Assembly: GCA_016206175.1 (NCBI GenBank)
Contig: JACQSB010000018.1
Coordinates: 1,334-65,333 of the forward strand
Direction: 5' to 3'
Length of the DNA: 64,000 nt
Origin: Candidatus Uhrbacteria bacterium
GTDB lineage: Bacteria; Patescibacteriota; Patescibacteriia; JACQRZ01
In this document: positions 653-21,546 of the stretch, piece by piece
Layout: the number at the start of each line of letters is the position of its first letter
Position numbering within the stretch: position 1 is the first letter of the stretch
Program-made: the position numbers and the translations under genes
The notes under the pieces: model-generated
Seen by the model: the letters and a program-made list of their open reading frames with translations, nothing else
What the model was told of the DNA's origin: nothing
The model's database searches: none

Positions 653-2440
653 TCATTGCGTCGGCAGTGCGGCTTTGCTTTCTTCTTTCGGACTTTCTTG
701 CGGAGCGGGATCCACTGTTTCTTCTTGAGTCGGCTGTTCCGTTGATACTGTCTCTTGCGCGCTCTGCGCGGCTAGCTCTGGTTTTACAGAGGCAGAGCTG
801 CATGCTTCTGCGATATTTTGTAATGCGCCATTAGATACCACAACGCAAAATGGCGCACCGGTCTCTGTGTCATACAGCTGGATACCGTGAGGACGGTCTG
901 CAGATCCTACGGTAAACGATTCTGTCTGTATCGATGATGCAAACAGTTTCTGTACGCGCATTACCCCGTCTTCGATCGCAACACCTACTGATGCAAGCGT
1001 GCTGCGCAGCCACGAAAGATCGATCGAGAGTATTTGCTGTGAAAGCGCTTGTATTGCCAAAAGCGCAATGCCAGAAGGATCAATCGTGGAAATGGAGCGC
1101 ATGCCCTCGATACCGCCAACGCCGAAAGCTGCATAAAATTCCTCTGCGACAGGGCCGATATGGGTGGTGTCAGAGCTGTCTGCTTTGTAGTTCCATCTTG
1201 TGATCTTAAGTTGATTCACTTTTTTAAGCATGTCGCCTGCATCAAGATCAGCAAAATTTTCTTTTAATGCTCTGCTCGATGCGTTGGTCCATGTGCCGCC
1301 TCCGGAAAGGTAAGCGCCTGACTCGGTATCAATGATGCGGTTTGCAGTAATGGCAGCGTTTTGGCCGACAGCGGGGGTTCCGAGATACAAAGTTGCCGCG
1401 CTGGATACTGTTTGCCCGGGCACTTCTCCGGTAACTGTGGGTGCGTCAATGGTCATTGCGCGAGCATATGGGTGCGTGCTGGTGCCAGTGCCTTGCAGCG
1501 TTATCGACGGCTCGGCGACATGCAATCCTTTGATTGGCGCATCCGCTCGGCCCGCCATGCTCAACGCAACAGTGACAGCACCACGTAAGCTCGTCTCGCC
1601 GTCAGTTGCCAGTGAAGAGAATTCGGCTTCTTCACTTTTCAATGACTCTGAATTCAATGCTGTGGCTGTAAAAGATGTCGCTCCTTCAGAATCAATGATT
1701 GCGGGTATATAGTGCTGCTGAATGCCATCAATGCCCGGCAATCCATTCAAGTTTTGCGATGTTCCTGGCGTACCTGCAGGTCCGGTATCCCCTTTTTTGC
1801 CTTGCGGACCCGTAAGGGCGCCGGAAGCGACAAGAGCGTCAATATACGAACGCACCGCTGAGTCCATTTCCTTGCGGAGCGTAGGGGCATCTATGGAAGC
1901 GGTACCAACTGCAACAATCTGCGTGGAGTCGCCCTCATCGCCGGCACTTTGCATCTCGCTATCTTTGCCTTGATGATCTGTTGCTAAAAGGCTTACTTTC
2001 TTTACTGATCCATCTGTTCCAGATTCGCCCTTCGGACCCCTTGGACCCCTCTCTCCCCTACCACCTTTTTCACCGCGAGGTCCTTGATCTCCCTTTGGCC
2101 CGGGAACACCTCGCAAAGCACCGGAAGAAGCTAATGAGTCAATGTATGTAGAAACCATAGTACTCATTTGTTCTTCATGGTCCTCGCTTATCTCTCCTTG
2201 ATTGTGTCCATGATCCCCATGGATATCCTCTTCTCCTGTTGTTGAAACATGAAACTCGCGGAATACCTTCCCAACCTCTTGTTCAACGAGTACCTGAATC
2301 GCTCCCGGCGACAACGTGGAATGTGCAACTTCCAAGTCAACCGCCTTTTGGGTATAGAATGCATGGATCGGGAATGAGGAAAGCACAAACACCAGGGCTG
2401 CAGGCGCTACAAAAAATGCGGAATAATGATTCCATTTCAT
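653..2440 (-). CDS. secreted collagen-like repeat protein with C-terminal peptidase S74 intramolecular-chaperone (tail-fibre type) domain
   Basis: ORF 653..2545. Likely start is ATG 2440 (MKWNHYSAFFVAPAALVFVLSS, AAGGA RBS upstream). Two G-X-Y tracts (GPKGDQGPRGEKGGRGERGPRGPKGESG; GPQGKKGDTGPAGTPG). His/acid tract EEDIHGDHGHNQGEISEDHEE. SSRALKENF...IGPVAEEF...LLAIQAL matches the S74 autoprocessing signature. Confidence 0.8.
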   Translation of the reverse strand: MKWNHYSAFFVAPAALVFVLSSFPIHAFYTQKAVDLEVAHSTLSPGAIQVLVEQEVGKVFREFHVSTTGEEDIHGDHGHNQGEISEDHEEQMSTMVSTYIDSLASSGALRGVPGPKGDQGPRGEKGGRGERGPRGPKGESGTDGSVKKVSLLATDHQGKDSEMQSAGDEGDSTQIVAVGTASIDAPTLRKEMDSAVRSYIDALVASGALTGPQGKKGDTGPAGTPGTSQNLNGLPGIDGIQQHYIPAIIDSEGATSFTATALNSESLKSEEAEFSSLATDGETSLRGAVTVALSMAGRADAPIKGLHVAEPSITLQGTGTSTHPYARAMTIDAPTVTGEVPGQTVSSAATLYLGTPAVGQNAAITANRIIDTESGAYLSGGGTWTNASSRALKENFADLDAGDMLKKVNQLKITRWNYKADSSDTTHIGPVAEEFYAAFGVGGIEGMRSISTIDPSGIALLAIQALSQQILSIDLSWLRSTLASVGVAIEDGVMRVQKLFASSIQTESFTVGSADRPHGIQLYDTETGAPFCVVVSNGALQNIAEACSSASVKPELAAQSAQETVSTEQPTQEETVDPAPQESPKEESKAALPTQ

Positions 2441-2463: not shown

Positions 2464-2509
2464 TGCAACTTAGTTGCAGTAACTTACCCCAAAACTTATC
2501 AACCGTCAA
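2464..2509 (-). promoter_or_regulatory. candidate promoter (-35 TTGACG, 17 nt, -10 TAAGTT) with palindromic operator TGCAACTTAGTTGCA
   Basis: Perfect 7-1-7 palindrome at 2464..2478. It lies 2 nt downstream of the -10 (2481..2486) and about 25 nt before start codon 2440. It matches 14 of 15 nt of the znuA operator at 19583..19597. Confidence 0.45.
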
Positions 2510-2645
2510 GGCAATGCCCTGTGGATAGATGCAACTTTGGTGCAATAACGATAATTACGTTCACTGGCACAAGATAGAGAAACGATAGAAACGCTCATCT
2601 ATCCGACTGGTGGGCAAAAAATGAAAATGGAAGAAAACGACGTAA

Positions 2646-4873: not shown

Positions 4874-6151
4874 CTAAAGAACGAGACCTTCTCCGTGCTT
4901 GAATTCACGGTCAACGGCAAACGCGCTCGCGTCGACTTCCCCGAGCCCAAAGGGGAGATCGAAGACCGAGACGTTCTCGCGCGCAGCCACAAGGTGCGCG
5001 ACGATTGTAGCCGTAAACGGAGCATGCATGACCCCGTGGCCGCTGAACCCAGAAGCGTGGATGAGGTTCGGCACGAACGGATCGTACCCGATGAGCGGAT
5101 TGTGGTCGGGGGTGACATCGTAGTACCCGCACGACACCCCACTCATCCGTGCCATCTCCGTGATGGCGGGAATGTAACCCTCGAGCTCCTTACGGATCGC
5201 TCCGCCGAGCCCGTCCGGATTCGAATAATGGAAACCGGATTGAATTTCATCCTGTCCTTCGAAGGTCGGCACCTCCTCTGGCGTATGATGCCCCCAGCCG
5301 GCCATCAGTTGTGTCCGCGCCTCCGGGCGGCAATACGCGCCCCGCGGGGTTATGACCATAGGCATCTGGTGGATGTTTGCGGCGTTTAGGCCGCATTCAT
5401 CCTTCTCGCCCATGCCGGGAAGAAAGTACAGATACCGCCGCCTCGTCGAGATCGGTAGCTCGTACCCACCGCACATGCGCGAGATCGCCGGCGCCCAGTT
5501 GCTTGCCGCATTGACGAAGAGAGTACCGGGATACTTCCGGCCGTTCTTGGCGCTGACGCTCACGATCCGTCCGTCCTCGACAGTTGCGTCGACGACTTCG
5601 GCGTTGGTGATGATGTCGGCCCCAAGCTCCGCTGCAGCAGCAGCTGCACCCTGGTAAATGAGATCAGGGTGCAAAAAACCGTCCGTCGGGCACCATGTGG
5701 CGCCGATGAGACCGGTCGTGTCGATGTATGGAAATTGATCGAAGATCTCTCCCTTCGTCAGGAAAGTAACTTCCGCCAACCCCGCTTCCTGCTGCATCTT
5801 GATCTGGCTGCGCAACGAATCGGGATCCGTGCGAAGGTCATACATGAAGAGATATCCGTTCTGCTCGATCGGGGACTGAACGCCACCGATGAGCTCTTCC
5901 CACTTCTTGTAAAAATCCACGGCATACCGCAAACCGCGAACCGTGGTCGGAGTCGTGAACTGCTGCCTGATGCAAGCAGCAGAACGCGAACTCGCACCGT
6001 TACCGAGCTGACGCGCTTCAAGCAGCATCACTTGGTGGCCGGCACGCTGGAGCTCCCAGGCACACAACGTGCCCGAGACGCCCCCGCCGATGACTACCAC
6101 ATGCTGCTTCGCGCCCCGCGGCGGCGGGTGCACCACAGAGTGAATACTCAT
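4874..6151 (-). CDS. FAD-dependent oxidoreductase (DAO / sarcosine-oxidase-beta-like family)
   Basis: N-terminal dinucleotide fold VVVIGGGVSGTLCAWELQRAGHQVMLLEA. Length and layout are typical of the glycine/D-amino-acid oxidase family. GC-rich. Confidence 0.8.
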   Translation of the reverse strand: MSIHSVVHPPPRGAKQHVVVIGGGVSGTLCAWELQRAGHQVMLLEARQLGNGASSRSAACIRQQFTTPTTVRGLRYAVDFYKKWEELIGGVQSPIEQNGYLFMYDLRTDPDSLRSQIKMQQEAGLAEVTFLTKGEIFDQFPYIDTTGLIGATWCPTDGFLHPDLIYQGAAAAAAELGADIITNAEVVDATVEDGRIVSVSAKNGRKYPGTLFVNAASNWAPAISRMCGGYELPISTRRRYLYFLPGMGEKDECGLNAANIHQMPMVITPRGAYCRPEARTQLMAGWGHHTPEEVPTFEGQDEIQSGFHYSNPDGLGGAIRKELEGYIPAITEMARMSGVSCGYYDVTPDHNPLIGYDPFVPNLIHASGFSGHGVMHAPFTATIVAHLVAARENVSVFDLPFGLGEVDASAFAVDREFKHGEGLVL

Positions 6152-6186: not shown

Positions 6187-7953
6187 TCAGTTATCACGCT
6201 CGTTGAGCTCGCGGCAGAACGCCTCGAGTTCTTCGATGGTCATGGTTGCCGTCGGCAAAGACCCGGGCTTGGAAACACTGAATCGGGCATCAGCGCTAGC
6301 AGCTTGCCGGAAGCGCACCTCGAGCTTGTGTTCTTGTTCCCATGTCCTGCCAACGAGTACCTGAAGCGGGATTCCGAGGAGTTCGGCATCCGTCAGCTTT
6401 TCGCCGATCCGCAGATCGCGATCGTCGATCAGCATGCGCAGATCCGAGTCGGACTGCAGCTGCTGGTAGATACTTTCTGCTTCAGCGCCGTTCTTCTCCG
6501 CGTTGACGGGGATAACGACGATGTGGAATGGCGTGAGGCTCCACGGCCAGATGATGCCACGCTCGTCATTGTGTTGCTCCACGATCGCTTGCACGATGCG
6601 CGAAACGCCAATGCCGTAGCAGCCCATCCAGTAGGGAGTTTTCTTGCCGAGCTCTGACGCGTAGCATGCGTCCATTGGTTCGGAGTACACCTGTTGAAGT
6701 TGGAAGATGTGGCCGAGTTCGATCCCCCGCTTCTCGACGAGCTGGCTCGTCTTGCAGTTCGGACAGTGCTGTCCCGCGACTGCTTTGGAGAGATCATGGT
6801 ATTCCGTGATTCGCGGAAAATCTCTGCCGGGGTTCACGTTGATGAAGTGAATGTCCTCTTCGTTTGCCCCGCACAAGAAATTCCGCAGGCCTTGCACTGA
6901 CCGATCGAAGAAGTACCGCACATTTGTCTTGCCGTACAGGTTGATCGGTCCGGCGAAGCCGACAGGAGCGCCAGTGACAGTCTGCACTGTTTCGGCATCC
7001 GCTGTTACCACTTCTTTTGCTCCGAGAAGATTCGCGAGCTTGATCTCGCTGATCTCGAGGTCACCGCGCATGGTGACGATCACCGGTTTCCCATCAGCAG
7101 CCATTACGATAGTCTTCGCCATCTTGGATGCAGGAATACCGGTGAACTCCTCGAGCTCTTGCACCGTACGAATGTTGGGAGTGGGCAGCTTCACGAGATC
7201 GGCAAACGCTTCTTCGGGATACCCCGGATAGTGCGCCGATGCCTTTTCCTGATTGCCGCCGTAATGGCACGCGGGACAGTACAGGAGGATATCCTCGCCG
7301 AACTCCGTGACCGCCATGAACTCCGCGCTGCCCGAGCCGCCGATGGCGCCCGAGTCAGCCTCGACCTCGATATAGTTGAAGCCGCACCGCGTGAACACAC
7401 GGTTGTAAGCGGCTTCCATCGTGTCATAGGCCTGCTTCATTGCCGCCGGATCTGCGCCGAAGGACTAGGCATCCTTCATGATGAATTCCCTACCCCGAAT
7501 CAATCCTTGGCGGGGCCGCAGTTCGTCGCGGAACTTCGGTCCCATTTGCCACAAGGTGATCGGCAGATCGCGGAAGCTCTGAAGCGTCGTACGGGCGAAG
7601 TGAGTGATCACTTCTTCCGCTGTCGGAGACATGAGAAACTCCGCGCCCTTGCGGTCCATGACCTGAAACGCGGTGTTGCTCTGGATGTACTTGTCCCACC
7701 TGCGGGTTTCTTCCCACAGGCTCCGTGGCTGCAGGATCGGCAACTCGAGCTCAACAGCGCCTGCGCGCTGCATTTCTTGCCGCACGATTGCTTCCACGTT
7801 CCGTCTGACCGCAAGGCCAAGCGGAGCCATGGTCCATACGCCGCTCGCCACCTGGGTCATAAACCCGGCCCGGATGAGCAAGCGCGTCCCCGGCGACGGA
7901 ACGTCTGCCGGGTCATCTCTCCTTGTTTTTGGGTAAAGCTTGCTGTAGTGCAT
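6187..7953 (-). pseudogene. proS: prolyl-tRNA synthetase interrupted by one in-frame TAG (7465..7467)
   Basis: Track ORFs 7465..7986 and 6187..7440 are in the same frame. The read-through is ...REFIMKDA*SFGADPAAMKQAYD.... Bacterial-type ProRS with an editing insertion. Likely start is ATG 7953 (MHYSKLY) with a GGAG RBS. Confidence 0.85.
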
Positions 7954-8082
7954 TTCTCCTTTTCCCTTCCGATGAAAACCTAGCATGCCAGGCTTTCATA
8001 TAATTTCCTTACAATGACACTATTTCAAAGGGCTCATGGTTGAGCCTAGGGTGCAATAATGTCGTTGTCAAGGAGTGCTGAA

Positions 8083-16649: not shown

Positions 16650-17054
16650 TCACTTTTGCAAATAGCGTCGACGAAATTCCTTTTCATCGCCATAGCGGAG
16701 AAACGCACCGTGATGCTGCGGCTCGACATAATTTCGCAATTTCTTATTACGGATACTGCACCAGTATGCTTCTGTCTCTCCTGCGATTACGGATGCGTAA
16801 AGAAGCAATCCATTTGCATAGCTGCAATACTGGCAGTTGATCTTTTCCCACCAAGTAAGATAAGTAAGACGCGCTCGATCAAATCGGAAATACTGTTTCC
16901 GTGGCACGTACGGAATCCCATAGAGCGGAAAACAGATACGTTGATAGATCTCGGTAGAAATATCCAAGATCACCAGCGGAACAATAAGCCCGTAGATAAA
17001 TGGACCGGCGAGAAAATGATTCACCAAGCGCTCTGGATGACGCTTATATTCCAT
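16650..17054 (-). CDS. hypothetical membrane protein (134 aa) with CxxC
   Basis: One or two TM helices and a CQYCSYANG motif. Lies directly downstream of znuB on the same strand. Confidence 0.5.
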   Translation of the reverse strand: MEYKRHPERLVNHFLAGPFIYGLIVPLVILDISTEIYQRICFPLYGIPYVPRKQYFRFDRARLTYLTWWEKINCQYCSYANGLLLYASVIAGETEAYWCSIRNKKLRNYVEPQHHGAFLRYGDEKEFRRRYLQK

Positions 17055-17069
17055 AAGAGAGATGAGGGC

Positions 17070-17882
17070 TCAAAAGGTCTTACATGCGCGAACGAGAATA
17101 GCGCAAAAGAAAAAAGCTGCGGCTGACAGCACGATAACTGCCCCCGTTGGAAAATCCAGTAGATATGATACTGCTAATCCGGTGATCACTGCAAGTTCGC
17201 CCCCCACGATGCTCCCGAGGATCATGCCACGTAAAGAGCGAGCAAGTAATTTCGCCGTAGACGGAGGAATGACAAGCAAAGCGCTGACTAAAATAATGCC
17301 CAACAACTTAATGCCCAACACGATGGTGACAGAAAGAATGATATAAAAGAAAAAATCGAATAATCCAGTGCGGATGCCGGAAAGCCAGGCGGACTCTTTA
17401 TCAAGCGCGAGCATGGTAAGCTGACGGCGCGTGAAAGCGAGAATCACAAAGATGAGCCCCGAAAATATCGTTATCACAAGCAAATCGTAGGAATTGATCG
17501 TAAGGATATTTCCAAACAAAAAACTCATAAGCTCCGGCTGATATCCGCGCTGGAGGCTTAAAAGTACAAGTCCGACAGAGAACGCCGTAGTAAACAAAAC
17601 GCCAATCAGGGCATCAGGCGCAAGTATGGTCTTGTGTTCCAAGAGGTAGATAACGATACCAACGAGTATGCCGACACCGACCGCGGAGAGAAAGGGATCC
17701 GCGCCGCTCAATACGCCTAGAGCAACTCCGGCAAGCGAGGCATGCGCAACGCCGTCACCGAAAAAAGACATATTGCGCAACGTAACGAATACTCCAAGAA
17801 AGGGCAAGATCAATCCAAGCGCGAGTCCTGCGAAAAGCGCCTTTTGCAGAAAGGGAAGTTGAAAGGCGGTAAAAATGTCCAT
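17070..17882 (-). CDS. znuB: metal (Zn/Mn) ABC transporter permease
   Basis: ABC-3 family permease pattern (FFGDGVAHASLAGVALG). Start is 2 nt from the znuC stop. Confidence 0.85.
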   Translation of the reverse strand: MDIFTAFQLPFLQKALFAGLALGLILPFLGVFVTLRNMSFFGDGVAHASLAGVALGVLSGADPFLSAVGVGILVGIVIYLLEHKTILAPDALIGVLFTTAFSVGLVLLSLQRGYQPELMSFLFGNILTINSYDLLVITIFSGLIFVILAFTRRQLTMLALDKESAWLSGIRTGLFDFFFYIILSVTIVLGIKLLGIILVSALLVIPPSTAKLLARSLRGMILGSIVGGELAVITGLAVSYLLDFPTGAVIVLSAAAFFFCAILVRACKTF

Positions 17883-17883
17883 A

Positions 17884-18657
17884 TTACGATTTTTCCTGGT
17901 GCTGATAGAGACTTACATCTTTACCGTACAACTGCTGCAAGGTCTGCGGCGTAAGGACATCGATCGGCGCGCCATGGCATACTAATGTTTTATTCAAACA
18001 CAGTACGGTATCGGCAAAACGCGCCACAATATCGATCTCGTGGGATACCATCACAATTGTATTGGCATGTTCTTTATGCAGATGAAGGATCAAATCATAA
18101 AACGTCTGCTCGCCTCCAATATCAATGCCGGAAGCAGGTTCGTCGAGAAATAAAATCTCCGGCGAGTGCAGTACGCTACGTATCACAAGCGTGCGTTGAA
18201 GCTGGCCGCCCGAAAGCGAACCAAGCCGTGCTGTCCGCATCGCGCTCATGCCTAAATGTTCCAGATATTCATCGATCCGTTCCTCTGGCACCGCCGGATG
18301 AGAAAACCGTAAAAATTCAAATACCGTGATCGGAAAGGTATGGTCAATAGCAAACCGCTGGGGCACATAGCCAACGCGCGGACGGGCTTCACTCGGAGCA
18401 AGACCGAGCACTTCAATGCTTCCGCTGGTCGGTGGAATGAGCCCCAGGAGAGCTTTAAGGAATGTCGTTTTCCCGGAACCATTCGGGCCCACGATAATAG
18501 CTACAGAACCGGAAGGAATAGAGCAAGAGATGTTCTGTAATATCGGCGTGCCATCGCCGTATGAGAAGGCCAGGTTATTGACTGTGATTGCAGCGCGGGA
18601 ATGCAGATGAAAGTCTCTATGATTACTGTTGAATGGGAATGTCGCTGAATGCTCCAA
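17884..18657 (-). CDS. znuC: metal ABC transporter ATP-binding protein
   Basis: Walker A GPNGSGKTT, signature LSGGQLQR and Walker B LFLDEP. Confidence 0.88.
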   Translation of the reverse strand: MEHSATFPFNSNHRDFHLHSRAAITVNNLAFSYGDGTPILQNISCSIPSGSVAIIVGPNGSGKTTFLKALLGLIPPTSGSIEVLGLAPSEARPRVGYVPQRFAIDHTFPITVFEFLRFSHPAVPEERIDEYLEHLGMSAMRTARLGSLSGGQLQRTLVIRSVLHSPEILFLDEPASGIDIGGEQTFYDLILHLHKEHANTIVMVSHEIDIVARFADTVLCLNKTLVCHGAPIDVLTPQTLQQLYGKDVSLYQHQEKS

Positions 18658-19561
18658 TGATGGAACGCACGTTATACTCCATAAGCTCCAGATATGTCAT
18701 TCGGCCCTGGGAACCTCCGAGTGGATCAATAATGCCGAGGCGTAATCCTTCATCGTTTGCAAATGACGAAAGCGAAGGGGTGGCAAGCTGTGGTTCGGAG
18801 AATAATACGGGTATGCCATAACTCTTGATCTCTGCGCGAAGATTCGCAAGATACTGCGGCGTTGGCTCGCCGCCAGCTGCCGGCTCAAATGTGCCGGCAA
18901 CGATCAGTCCGAAATTATCACTAAAATAATACCACGCGTCATGCAAACTGACAATCCTTGTTCCGCGCAATGGAGCAAGAAGAGATGGCAATTCTTGTTC
19001 CTTTTCTGCAAGTTTCTTCTGATACCTGACAGCATTCTCTTGGTACACAGAAGCATGGACAGGATCGGCAGCGACAAGTCCTTCCGCGATTGTGGCAACC
19101 ATCATGCGCGCGTTGCCAAAATGGAGCCAATAATGCGGATCAATGCCGTCAGCATTTTCCCCGTGTTCGTCTTCTTCGTGGTCGTTCGCTGCTTCCTTAC
19201 GCAACACGATGCCTTTGTCTACCGTAACACGCTGCATTTCAGGCGCGACGCTTTCCAGACGCGTAGCCCAAGCATCAATTCCATGACCGATATCAAAAAG
19301 CACGCGAATGCCCTGCAGATCCTGCAACTGACGTGGCGTAAATTCATATAGATGCGGAGAAGCGCCTGAAGGTACGATCAGATGCACGTCAACATAGTCC
19401 CCTGCCACTTCGCGTACAAAATCATATAAAGGATAGATGGTTGCCGCCACTTGAATACGGTCGTCCTTGCTTGATGGGACGTCAGTACGCTTCTGTAATC
19501 CTGCTAAACCAAATACAATGATGAGCGCTGCCGCGCCAAGCGTAATCCAAAAAAATTTCAT
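18623..19561 (-). CDS. znuA: metal ABC transporter substrate-binding protein with His-rich loop
   Basis: Cluster-9 (ZnuA/TroA) SBP layout with a signal/TM N-terminus and an acidic His-rich insert NDHEEDEHGENADGIDPHYW typical of zinc-specific ZnuA. Confidence 0.82.
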   Translation of the reverse strand: MKFFWITLGAAALIIVFGLAGLQKRTDVPSSKDDRIQVAATIYPLYDFVREVAGDYVDVHLIVPSGASPHLYEFTPRQLQDLQGIRVLFDIGHGIDAWATRLESVAPEMQRVTVDKGIVLRKEAANDHEEDEHGENADGIDPHYWLHFGNARMMVATIAEGLVAADPVHASVYQENAVRYQKKLAEKEQELPSLLAPLRGTRIVSLHDAWYYFSDNFGLIVAGTFEPAAGGEPTPQYLANLRAEIKSYGIPVLFSEPQLATPSLSSFANDEGLRLGIIDPLGGSQGRMTYLELMEYNVRSIIGAFSDIPIQQ

Positions 19562-19575
19562 ATCTTGTTCATTAT

Positions 19576-19629
19576 TTCTAAATGCAAATTAGTTGCATTT
19601 AGAATATCTGACAAAATACCCCGTGTCAA
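19576..19629 (-). promoter_or_regulatory. znuA promoter (-35 TTGACA, 17 nt, -10 TATTCT) overlapped by a perfect 12-5-12 palindrome (Zur-box-like)
   Basis: TTCTAAATGCAA-ATTAG-TTGCATTTAGAA at 19576..19604. The -10 complement is at 19601..19606 and the -35 complement at 19624..19629. Confidence 0.6.
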
Positions 19630-19648: not shown

Positions 19649-20686
19649 TTATTTCACGCGAGGTATATCGGCAAAATCAACATCAGTTATTCCCATGCCT
19701 GTCTTTTTCATGATGGCAAACGCGTCCGACGGCTTCCCGAGATAATACCGTCGCAATTCGGTGGGATGCACATACCATGCTTCACCGTTTCTCTGCACGG
19801 CAAGAAATATCACACCTGCGTGCCTCGACGCAAATTGCTTGTTTGTTGCTATACGAGCGGCTCCGGTCGGCGAATACCCGTTCATTACCTCAAGACCATC
19901 GGCATATCCATCCCCATCGGTGTCGGCAGCAGCGGGGTCGGTTCCGATAGCCGCTTCTCCACGATCGGAAAGCCCATCGCCATCCGTATCTGTGCCATCA
20001 CGCAATGTCTCGTAGGCAAGAGGGATTGAGTCCATGTCACTATTTTTGATCCCGATCCCGCTGGACCGCATGACAGCAAACGCATCGGCGGGTCGGCCGA
20101 GAAATACTGCTTTGGAGTCTTTGGGCCGCACATACCATGCTTCACCATTTCTTTCAGTAGCGATGAGGATGCGGCCGCGCAGTCGTTTCATTTTTGTGTT
20201 CTGCACTTCTTCTTTCGATGGGAGTTTTGCGAGATTCGAATAAAACATTTCTTCTGCGGATGGTTGTTTCTGCATCTCTGTTTGCACTCTTCCATAGGCG
20301 GGAACAAGTTCCCCGCTACAGCGCGCAAGCTCACCAGGCGCGAGTATATTGCGGGAAAAGTATTTGAGATCTTGCGGCAAGACGCATATCATCGAATGGC
20401 CCTTAAAATCCTTCCAGGTAGACTGCAAGAACGTGGTTTGCACTTCGCAGGCATCCCCTTTCATGCCAAGAATTGTCCGCTCGGCAACCTCACCATTTCC
20501 GGAAACAACCACCTTAGCCGGCAGGCATGCGGAAAAATATGTCTCGAAGCATGTCTCTGCCTCATCGCCGGCTCCGGTAACGTCGATTGAACCGCACTCA
20601 TACGGAGATTGGCCCAACGCAGGGTTTGGTGTGAGTGCGATACCGGCTATTGCGAGAACAAAGATGATGCGTTGCATCATGGACAT
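19649..20686 (-). CDS. secreted protein: Cys-rich N-domain, 2x GEAWYV module, thrombospondin-type-3-like Ca-binding repeats
   Basis: Signal peptide MSMMQRIIFVLAIAGIALT. Two copies of the ..GRIL....NGEAWYV.P....R..LG.P.DAF..M...G.GI module. DTDGDGLSD...GTDP...DTDGDGYADGLE repeats. Confidence 0.7.
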   Translation of the reverse strand: MSMMQRIIFVLAIAGIALTPNPALGQSPYECGSIDVTGAGDEAETCFETYFSACLPAKVVVSGNGEVAERTILGMKGDACEVQTTFLQSTWKDFKGHSMICVLPQDLKYFSRNILAPGELARCSGELVPAYGRVQTEMQKQPSAEEMFYSNLAKLPSKEEVQNTKMKRLRGRILIATERNGEAWYVRPKDSKAVFLGRPADAFAVMRSSGIGIKNSDMDSIPLAYETLRDGTDTDGDGLSDRGEAAIGTDPAAADTDGDGYADGLEVMNGYSPTGAARIATNKQFASRHAGVIFLAVQRNGEAWYVHPTELRRYYLGKPSDAFAIMKKTGMGITDVDFADIPRVK

Positions 20687-20691
20687 AATAA

Positions 20692-21546
20692 TTATTGAAC
20701 AACGATTATACCGCCGTGAGACGGGGCAAGATGATTGTGAAAGCGATAGGTGCCCGCTTTCTGAAACGGAAATGAATACTCCTCACCGATTGTCTGCTGA
20801 TCAAATCCCGACAGATCCGTATGCACGGGATGAGGATCTGATGCTACCCACATTGATGCTGAACCGGTACTTCGGAATACCACCGTCTGTCCAACCTTGA
20901 TCGTCACCGAAGAAGGAGCAAAAGTGTTTCCGTTATAGAGAATGGTTGTCGGAGATACTGGTGATTCTTTTGCTGGCTCTGTTGATGTTGCTGTGTCGGC
21001 AACGACGGGTGCCTTTTCTTTTTTCTTCGCTTCATTTTTATCCTGCATCGCAGGCGCTTGCGCTTGTGGCGGCAGGAGAATGGCATCAAACTTGGCGGAA
21101 GGTACGAGCAATAGATTCTCGTGAGTAATGCCAAGACCTAACTCGCGCATAACCCGAAATGCATCTGCCGGCCGCGCAAGAAAATAGCGTTTGAATGTAG
21201 TAGGATGCACGTACCATGCTTCACCATTGGACTCTACTTGTAAAAGGATTCTTCCGGCAAGGCGGGTAGCGAGCGGTGAGGCGCCCTCCTCATCTCCTTG
21301 CGGGATTTTTTCCAAATCTGCATTGGTGATGCCGAGCCCAAGCTGCCGCATTACCTGAAATGCGTCTGCGGGACGGCCAAGGAAATACCGTTGCTCATTT
21401 TTCGGATTCACATACCACGCTTCGCCTTTCTGTCTGACATCGAGCAGAATACGGCCTTTCAGCTTTGTGGATAATGACAACGCGTCGACACGAGCCGAAA
21501 ACGTTAACGCGAGCACGAATGCGAGAATGCTTAAAACGCATCTCAT
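20692..21546 (-). CDS. secreted protein: 2x GEAWYV module plus C-terminal cupredoxin-like domain
   Basis: Signal peptide and two GEAWYV modules. The C-terminal FAPSSVTIKVGQTVVFRSTG...AGTYRFHNHLAPSHGGIIVV has a cupredoxin-fold pattern, but no canonical Cys ligand is evident. Confidence 0.7.
   Translation of the reverse strand: MRCVLSILAFVLALTFSARVDALSLSTKLKGRILLDVRQKGEAWYVNPKNEQRYFLGRPADAFQVMRQLGLGITNADLEKIPQGDEEGASPLATRLAGRILLQVESNGEAWYVHPTTFKRYFLARPADAFRVMRELGLGITHENLLLVPSAKFDAILLPPQAQAPAMQDKNEAKKKEKAPVVADTATSTEPAKESPVSPTTILYNGNTFAPSSVTIKVGQTVVFRSTGSASMWVASDPHPVHTDLSGFDQQTIGEEYSFPFQKAGTYRFHNHLAPSHGGIIVVQ

Follow-up and report, generated by a model that had tools for sequence, protein, structure and literature searches.

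The window analyzed here is a stretch of 64,000 nucleotides from the contig JACQSB010000018.1 of a Candidatus Uhrbacteria bacterium, a member of the candidate phyla radiation (CPR). It encodes a presumably secreted, phage tail fibre-like protein and a putative zinc importer, and our subject is a predicted palindromic operator that appears in the promoters of both. The fibre gene occupies positions 653..2440 on the minus strand and codes for a protein of 595 amino acids (aa), whose hydrophobic N-terminus (a signal or anchor) is followed by a tract rich in His, Asp and Glu, two modules that each combine a helix with a collagen-like segment, and a C-terminal Peptidase_S74 domain of the intramolecular-chaperone kind. 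The importer genes, also on the minus strand, are znuA (18623..19561), which encodes a zinc-type cluster A-I substrate-binding protein (Pfam ZnuA PF01297, 218 bits), znuC (17884..18657), coding for the ABC ATPase, and znuB (17070..17882), coding for the ABC-3 permease. An NCBI protein from Candidatus Uhrbacteria is 100% identical to this ZnuA. Ahead of its DPHxW motif, at aa 126, ZnuA has the His-rich loop NDHEEDEHGENADGIDPH, and its closest relative with a solved structure is YcdH of Bacillus subtilis, which we take to be Zur-regulated and whose loop aligns with that of the window protein. The His in the SLHDAW motif of ZnuA presumably occupies the third metal-ligand position, where manganese-type proteins would have Glu. 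The His-rich loop and the best alignment with YcdH point to zinc, rather than manganese, as the substrate.

Read on the minus strand, the fibre promoter consists of TTGACG (2509-2504), a 17-nt spacer, TAAGTT (2486-2481), the dinucleotide 'ac' and the palindrome TGCAACTAAGTTGCA (2478-2464), followed after 23 nt by the ATG start codon (2440). The znuA promoter is built in the same manner, from TTGACA (19629-19624), 17 nt, TATTCT (19606-19601), 'aaa' and TGCAACTAATTTGCA (19597-19583), with the ATG 21 nt further on (19561). The two palindromes, TGCAACTTAGTTGCA at 2464-2478 on the fibre side and TGCAAATTAGTTGCA at 19583-19597 on the znuA side, lie where the sequence-only reading of this DNA had located them, and the geometry proposed there, in which a -35 element, a 17-nt spacer and a -10 element are followed 2-3 nt later by the palindrome, is found in both promoters. 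The proximity of the palindrome to the start codon was also correctly noted, but the proposed distance of 22-25 nt was not accurate, given the measured 23 nt for the fibre gene and 21 nt for znuA. The predicted core promoters span 2481..2509 (fibre, read from the sequence) and 19601..19629 (znuA, called by a consensus scanner with 10 of 12 positions matching), both on the minus strand.

Both boxes have a 7-1-7 layout. The proximal box of the fibre promoter (2464..2478) is a perfect palindrome, TGCAACT-T-AGTTGCA, as claimed originally, and the znuA box is AAATGCAACT-A-ATTTGCATTT. The znuA box turned out to be longer than first read, namely, a 27-bp palindrome of the form TCTAAATGCAA-N5-TTGCATTTAGA; this predicted operator (TCTAAATGCAA-CTAAT-TTGCATTTAGA) extends over 19577..19603, with its core at 19583-19597, and overlaps the 3' end of the -10 element. 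The fibre box consists of a perfect 15-bp core with non-consensus flanks, and because it begins 2 nt past the -10 element, it overlaps the site where transcription is predicted to start. A second, degenerate box, TGCAACTTTGGTGCA (2530..2544), lies beyond the fibre -35 element on its upstream side, at a distance of 66 bp, centre to centre, from the proximal box.

That the two promoters carry the same operator, as was proposed from the sequence alone, is borne out by the distribution of the motif. The entire 64 kb contains only two exact TGCAA-N5-TTGCA sites, the fibre box and the znuA box; both are intergenic, and intergenic DNA accounts for 6.3 of the 64 kb. All remaining TGCAAC/GTTGCA hexamers in the window are single and intragenic. 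With up to two mismatches allowed, the pattern initially put forward yields 5 strand-matches (3 distinct sites) in the window, against 0.58 expected, and none of 100 shuffles produced 5 such matches. Outside the -35 element, the -10 element and the box, the fibre and znuA promoters are dissimilar, which argues for a shared constraint and against a recent duplication.

Comparison with other genomes suggests what kind of operator this is. The znuA promoters of four loci with orthologous znuA genes (L001, L002, L003 and L004; 64-68% protein identity) retain TTGACA/G, the 17-nt spacer, the -10 element, two or three A residues and then TGCAAnTTAnTTGCAttt, with the adjoining DNA having diverged, so that the proposed check on orthologous promoters came out in favour of the box at znuA. 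The 2-3-nt spacing past the predicted -10 element recurs in L001-L003 and also in L131 and L213. A scan with the exact extended pattern AAATGCAANTNANTTGCATTT across one genome per bacterial or archaeal species found at least 120 loci. Among the 120 matches listed, the first downstream gene encodes a ZnuA homologue in at least 31 cases, a Fur-family protein in at least 11 and ZnuC in at least 8, and a gene of one of these three kinds lies within 300 bp in 50 of the 120. Other downstream genes among the matches listed include cobW/COG0523 (at least 10), ArsP_2 (at least 8), MerC (at least 7), ZIP (at least 3) and TonB-plug (at least 2). The same matches span Clostridia, Bacteroidota, Campylobacterota, spirochaetes and CPR, and the exact core of the fibre box, TGCAA-CTAAG/CTTAG-TTGCA, is one of the commonest, present in 18 of the 120 boxes listed.

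This set of downstream genes is textbook content of a Zur regulon. Fur-family genes (PF01475, E 1e-18 to 1e-25) adjoin boxes in L130, L134, L212 and L213 as well as in the CPR loci L079 (Saccharibacteria) and L081, and such apparent autoregulation of fur-family genes identifies the class of the regulator. A 10-1-10 layout with AAAT...ATTT outer arms is typical of Fur-family boxes, such as the Zur box of B. subtilis. By all these sequence criteria, the palindrome is a predicted operator of the Fur-family, Zur type with a variant core; the original assignment to this type is backed both by the retention of the box at znuA orthologues and by its position in front of znuA, fur-family, cobW and ZIP genes across phyla.

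The fibre protein matches Peptidase_S74 (PF13884) with 43.8 bits, against a cut-off of 22, over aa 388-439. This domain core (1124..1279, minus strand) begins with SSRALKENF, in which Ser388 and Lys393 show the Ser-x4-Lys spacing of the autoproteolytic dyad known from the endosialidase chaperone domain; the equivalents of both residues are invariant across the 16 members of the subfamily of small fibres described below. Two collagen-like runs of Gly-X-Y (GXY) triplets precede the domain, the first with 12 triplets (2003..2110, minus strand; aa 111-146) and the second with 6 (1757..1810, minus strand; aa 211-228). The Pfam Collagen model scores 22.1 bits on the protein, under its cut-off of 27.2, and the NCBIfam models of the Scl1 and Scl2 collagen-like adhesins match weakly, at 33 and 29 bits, far under their cut-offs. 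The protein is also matched by tail-fibre families of the PHROG collection, its helix-collagen part resembles FibU of phage 80alpha (6v8i, gp68), and an NCBI protein 100% identical to it is annotated as 'tail fiber domain-containing protein [Candidatus Uhrbacteria bacterium]'. The gene lies in the chromosome, in a neighbourhood free of phage genes, and the N-terminus of the product is of the Sec type. A gene that starts near position 340 (MAVNVQTGIGMVD...) on the minus strand and is truncated by the start of the window (1-~340) is the next one downstream; given the gap of approximately 310 nt past the fibre stop codon, the fibre gene is probably monocistronic in the window.

The His/Asp/Glu-rich tract of the fibre, EEDIHGDHGHNQGEISEDHEE (2171..2233, minus strand; aa 70-90), was initially likened to the His-rich loop of ZnuA. 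This likeness stands for the window protein, but the tract is specific to the window lineage and is absent from all 15 other subfamily members; we therefore rejected zinc capture by the tract as a family-wide mechanism, and the tract cannot account for the link of the family to zinc.

No full-length orthologue of the 595-aa fibre was found in a collection of 5.8 billion proteins. The top database matches, P0123, P0127 and P0128, were rejected as orthologues, being 46% identical over only the C-terminal 45% of the protein and having no box. Proteins of 890-956 aa that share the C-terminal half of the fibre, likewise without a Zur box, are encoded at L005-L009, in neighbourhoods of the conjugative or mobile-element type (TraG/TrwB, ParA, DUF932, DUF2958, resolvase, restriction-modification). 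Small relatives of 340-436 aa have the same build as the fibre, with a signal peptide, a helix, a short GXY run and the S74 domain; outside the window, members of this subfamily contain 3-5 GXY triplets or none. A profile search sets these small fibres (approximately 25 members, one annotated as Candidatus Doudnabacteria) apart as a distinct subfamily. The AlphaFold 2 monomer model of one small fibre, P0131, built from a 16-sequence alignment, was unusable (predicted local distance difference test score 41, predicted template modelling score 0.23).

All six genomic contexts of the subfamily that we examined (the window, L130, L131, L134, L212 and L213) show a link both to zinc genes and to Zur-type boxes. 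In L130, a fur-family gene and two boxes precede a fibre-znuA-znuC-znuB array in which the fibre gene is separated from znuA by 5 nt. L131 has a divergent YibE_F gene, a box, TTGACA, TAAACT, another box and then fibre-znuA, with a gap of 15 nt. The order in L134 is two boxes 66 bp apart, the fibre gene, another box, a fur-family gene (5259-5696), ZIP and YibE_F. In the Doudnabacteria locus L212, a fur-family gene, a box, an open reading frame (ORF) for 209 aa and a second box are followed by methyltransferase-fibre-ZIP-YibE_F, and in L213, ZIP and a fur-family gene (7455-7889) are divergent from the fibre gene, with boxes on either side of TTGACA/TATATT. Thus, the genomic coupling of the small-fibre subfamily with zur, znuACB, ZIP and YibE_F is conserved in CPR bacteria: these fibre genes head znuACB or zur-ZIP-YibE_F operons or diverge from zur, in support of the earlier suggestion of a zinc regulon that includes the fibre. 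Approximately 85 other S74 loci (79 of the 80 metagenomic loci recovered by conserved S74 motifs, and L005-L009) have no zinc genes or boxes nearby, although many of the contigs are short, and the gap in scores between them and the small fibres is partly circular because the profile used for this comparison was built from the six linked fibres; the proteins encoded there are mostly multidomain, ranging from several hundred to more than 2,000 aa.

The fibre promoters themselves are comparable across the subfamily. Two boxes flank the core promoter in five of the six (the window, L131, L130, L134 and L213), at spacings of 66, 72, 67, 66 and 54 bp, respectively; the proximal box is equivalently placed in L131, L130, L134 and L213, and the promoters of the window, L131, L130 and L134 align box to box. 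The expectation that the box would be found upstream of relatives of the fibre gene holds for members of the subfamily; the databases contain no strict orthologue, so that the promoter comparison involves proteins 33-37% identical to the window fibre.

Two further features of these promoters were observed. The window (2514-2521, minus strand) and L131 (4215-4222) have an identical 8-mer, ATCCACAG, between the distal box, which it follows at a distance of 3 nt, and the -35 element; it may be an extra regulatory element or a chance match. An asymmetric proximal box, AAACGCAAAT(A/T)ATT(C/T)GCATTT, takes the place of the symmetric TGCAA type in one fibre lineage (L130 452-472, L134 3970-3990, L213 7960-7980), and the conservation of this form may reflect a change in the specificity of the local Fur-family regulator.

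YibE_F-family membrane proteins recur in the CPR operons with Zur boxes (L131 3012-4133, L134 6446-7543, L212 10038-11192), where their genes adjoin ZIP or diverge from fibre-znuA. This pattern suggests a role of the YibE_F family in the transport of zinc or another metal.

In view of the common box and the contexts of the small fibres, it appears likely that a Zur operator is shared by znuACB and the secreted fibre gene of the window, and that the fibre is part of the zinc-starvation response. Under such a scheme, when zinc is sufficient, zinc-loaded Zur dimers would occupy the box over the transcription start, 2-3 nt past the -10 element, and block RNA polymerase at both the znuACB and the fibre promoters, and at the latter promoter the weaker distal box would probably add cooperative binding. 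When zinc is short, Zur would leave the DNA, and the importer ZnuABC and the fibre would be made together. The fibre would then be exported via its N-terminal signal and trimerise with the help of the C-terminal S74 chaperone domain, which would cut itself off at Ser388 by means of the Ser-Lys dyad, so that a short fibre with a collagen stalk would remain at the cell surface or outside the cell. Our best guess is that the fibre is an extracellular accessory of zinc acquisition, involved either in metal capture and hand-off or in reaching a source of zinc, for instance the host cell. The fusion of fibre genes to znuACB or ZIP/YibE_F transcription units, seen in four lineages, speaks for a direct part of the fibre in acquiring zinc. 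More tentatively, the small S74/collagen-like fibres of CPR bacteria might generally represent an unrecognised, Zur-controlled component of extracellular high-affinity zinc uptake, a self-processing trimer that captures zinc at the cell envelope or outside it and feeds ZnuABC or ZIP/YibE_F, or taps the host.

Several observations weigh against this interpretation. The -10 element of the fibre promoter, TAAGTT, is weak, matching TATAAT at only three of six positions, which is why the consensus scanner calls no fibre promoter. The fibre box lacks the AAA/TTT flanks seen at znuA boxes and has 4 mismatches to the 21-bp consensus, as many as several background matches, so the affinity of the regulator for it may be lower. 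A Pfam search of 40 ORFs in the 64-kb window detected no regulator genes of the Fur, ArsR, MarR, DtxR or MerR families. NCBIfam does not separate zinc from manganese substrate-binding proteins, the MntC, AztC and ZnuA models scoring approximately equally on the window ZnuA and all below their cut-offs, nor does it type the fibre-adjacent Fur-family proteins as Zur, Fur or PerR, with scores again below cut-offs. Finally, the alignment of the 16 members shows no invariant His, Cys or Asp within the mature fibre, which, together with the lineage-specific distribution of the His tract, leaves a direct zinc-binding role without family-wide support in the sequences.

The last point bears on the main alternative to a role in zinc acquisition, namely, that the regulation is real but the fibre does not handle zinc. 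The fibre would instead be an adhesin or host-contact fibre of an episymbiotic CPR cell, for which zinc starvation serves as the cue to attach or to change host. We consider this possible, if somewhat unlikely. Besides the lack of a conserved metal-binding site in the mature protein, a build like that of phage receptor-binding fibres and collagen-like adhesins would fit such a function, as would the presence of larger homologues in conjugative-element contexts. However, in L130 and L131 the fibre gene is fused to transporter genes with gaps of 5 and 15 nt, and in L134 and L212 to ZIP and YibE_F; so close a linkage is more often seen with a functional partner than with an adhesin under loose co-regulation. 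Furthermore, the window protein has gained a His/acid tract resembling that of ZnuA.

Three other explanations are all unlikely. The fibre box could be a relic of an ancestral operon in which boxes, fibre gene and znuACB were arranged as in L131, with znuACB having moved 17 kb off together with a box of its own. The homology of the window fibre promoter with that of L131, including the two boxes and the common ATCCACAG, agrees with such a history, and so do the degeneracy of the distal box and the non-consensus flanks of the proximal one. Nevertheless, the proximal box is still a perfect 7-1-7 palindrome and has kept its position relative to the -10 element even though the proteins are only approximately 37% identical to those of L131; at this divergence, unconstrained intergenic DNA would not survive. 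It is also improbable that the Fur-family regulator senses iron, manganese or peroxide, such that the regulon is not one of zinc. The ambiguity of the NCBIfam models, for the regulators as well as for ZnuA, would allow this, but the genes downstream of the box are typical of zinc (substrate-binding proteins with His-rich loops, cobW/COG0523 and ZIP), and ZnuA itself has the His-rich loop, the best alignment with the presumably Zur-regulated YcdH and, presumably, His as the third metal ligand. An action of the palindrome as RNA, in the form of a hairpin in the 5' untranslated region that affects stability or translation, is very improbable and was rejected on the pattern of conservation: both leaders do fold (-7.5 kcal/mol, z = -2.0, and -12.9 kcal/mol, z = -5.7), but the bases TGCAA/TTGCA are themselves conserved around a free centre, with no compensatory changes, some boxes lie upstream of the -35 element and hence outside the transcript, the boxes are tightly tied to fur-family genes, and Rfam has no match anywhere in the window.

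The operator and its control of znuACB constitute an ordinary Zur system with a variant core. As in known Zur regulons, for example that of B. subtilis, an AT-rich 7-1-7 or 10-1-10 repeat overlaps the -10 element and transcription start of a znuABC-type operon, and the outer AAAT...ATTT arms of the B. subtilis Zur box, which we take to be AAATCGTAATnATTACGATTT, match those of the znuA-type box in the window. The two differ in the inner core, GCAAC/GTTGC here as opposed to CGTAA/TTACG in B. subtilis. Zur boxes in general also front cobW/COG0523, ZIP and the gene of the regulator itself, as the box studied here does. Zur regulons are known to comprise transporters, chaperones for zinc and zinc-free paralogues of zinc-containing proteins, and the inclusion of a secreted S74/collagen-like fibre has no precedent in the literature that we searched.

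The closest analogues of the fibre are unrelated to it in sequence and build. Streptococcal Pht proteins are surface-exposed, controlled by AdcR, encoded near AdcAII/Lmb and thought to aid zinc acquisition. The parallel lies in a surface protein whose gene neighbours that of a zinc substrate-binding protein and shares its regulation, and a His-rich tract is present in the window fibre; yet there is no sequence kinship, the Pht proteins bind zinc through conserved His-triad motifs whereas the fibres have no conserved metal site, and AdcR is a regulator of the MarR type, unlike the predicted Fur-family regulator of the fibres. ZinT and AztD are extracytoplasmic zinc chaperones of ZnuA-type systems and are similar to the fibre in being extracytoplasmic accessories encoded within, or co-regulated with, an operon for a zinc ABC importer. 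However, they are globular periplasmic metal binders, in contrast to a protein predicted to be of the trimeric fibre type with a self-cleaving chaperone domain. A conserved metal-binding motif of the kind found in Pht, ZinT or AztD (a His triad or His-rich site) was not detected among the 16 fibres.

In build, the fibre is closest to phage tail fibres, endosialidase tailspikes and FibU of 80alpha, with which it has in common the S74 domain with the Ser/Lys dyad and a stalk of helix and collagen-like segments. Unlike the phage proteins, it is encoded in the chromosome, has a Sec-type N-terminus and a predicted metal-repressor operator, and belongs to a family that sits in metal-transporter operons. 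The Scl1 and Scl2 adhesins are surface proteins with GXY triple-helix segments, to which the collagen-like runs of the fibre may be compared, but the fibre lacks their LPXTG anchor and has an S74 C-terminus; we know of no link of these adhesins to metal regulation.

The new element, then, is the fibre, which would represent a new class of Zur-regulon member and has a fair chance of being a new component of extracellular zinc acquisition. The literature that we searched contains no connection between Zur or zinc and proteins of the S74, tail-fibre or collagen-like kind, in agreement with the initial impression that the connection had not been described, and no report of a Zur regulon in Patescibacteria; the variant core of the Zur box was not found there either, an earlier description being possible. 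A tail fibre-like, predicted self-cleaving secreted protein wired into zinc starvation and conserved in several CPR lineages would be unexpected. It would offer the first functional handle on one subfamily of the abundant CPR proteins annotated as 'tail fiber domain-containing', and a testable hypothesis on how tiny, host-dependent CPR cells are supplied with trace metals. The box variant AAATGCAAnTnAnTTGCATTT could help in predicting the zinc regulons of uncultivated lineages.

Directly 3' of znuB is a conserved ORF for 134 aa (16650..17054, minus strand), whose product is hydrophobic in its N-terminal part and has a CxxC...C motif. The ORF has no Pfam or NCBIfam match, is 79-90% identical in L001-L003, above the 64-68% of ZnuA, and probably belongs to the zinc operon as an uncharacterised fourth gene. 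Upstream of znuA, two secreted proteins are encoded on the minus strand (19649-20686 and 20692-21546) and are syntenic in L001 and L002; one contains a bacterial TSP3 repeat, the other is cupredoxin-like, and both hold repeated 'NGEAWYV...RPADAF' modules, with no box of their own.

Elsewhere in the window, the prolyl-tRNA synthetase gene is split by an in-frame TAG codon (7465-7467, minus strand) between the ORFs at 7465-7986 and 6187-7440. The TAG takes the place of the conserved Tyr of the FxMKDxYSF motif (translation REFIMKDA*SFGAD); possible explanations are a nonsense variant, an error of sequencing or assembly, and recoding in an essential gene.

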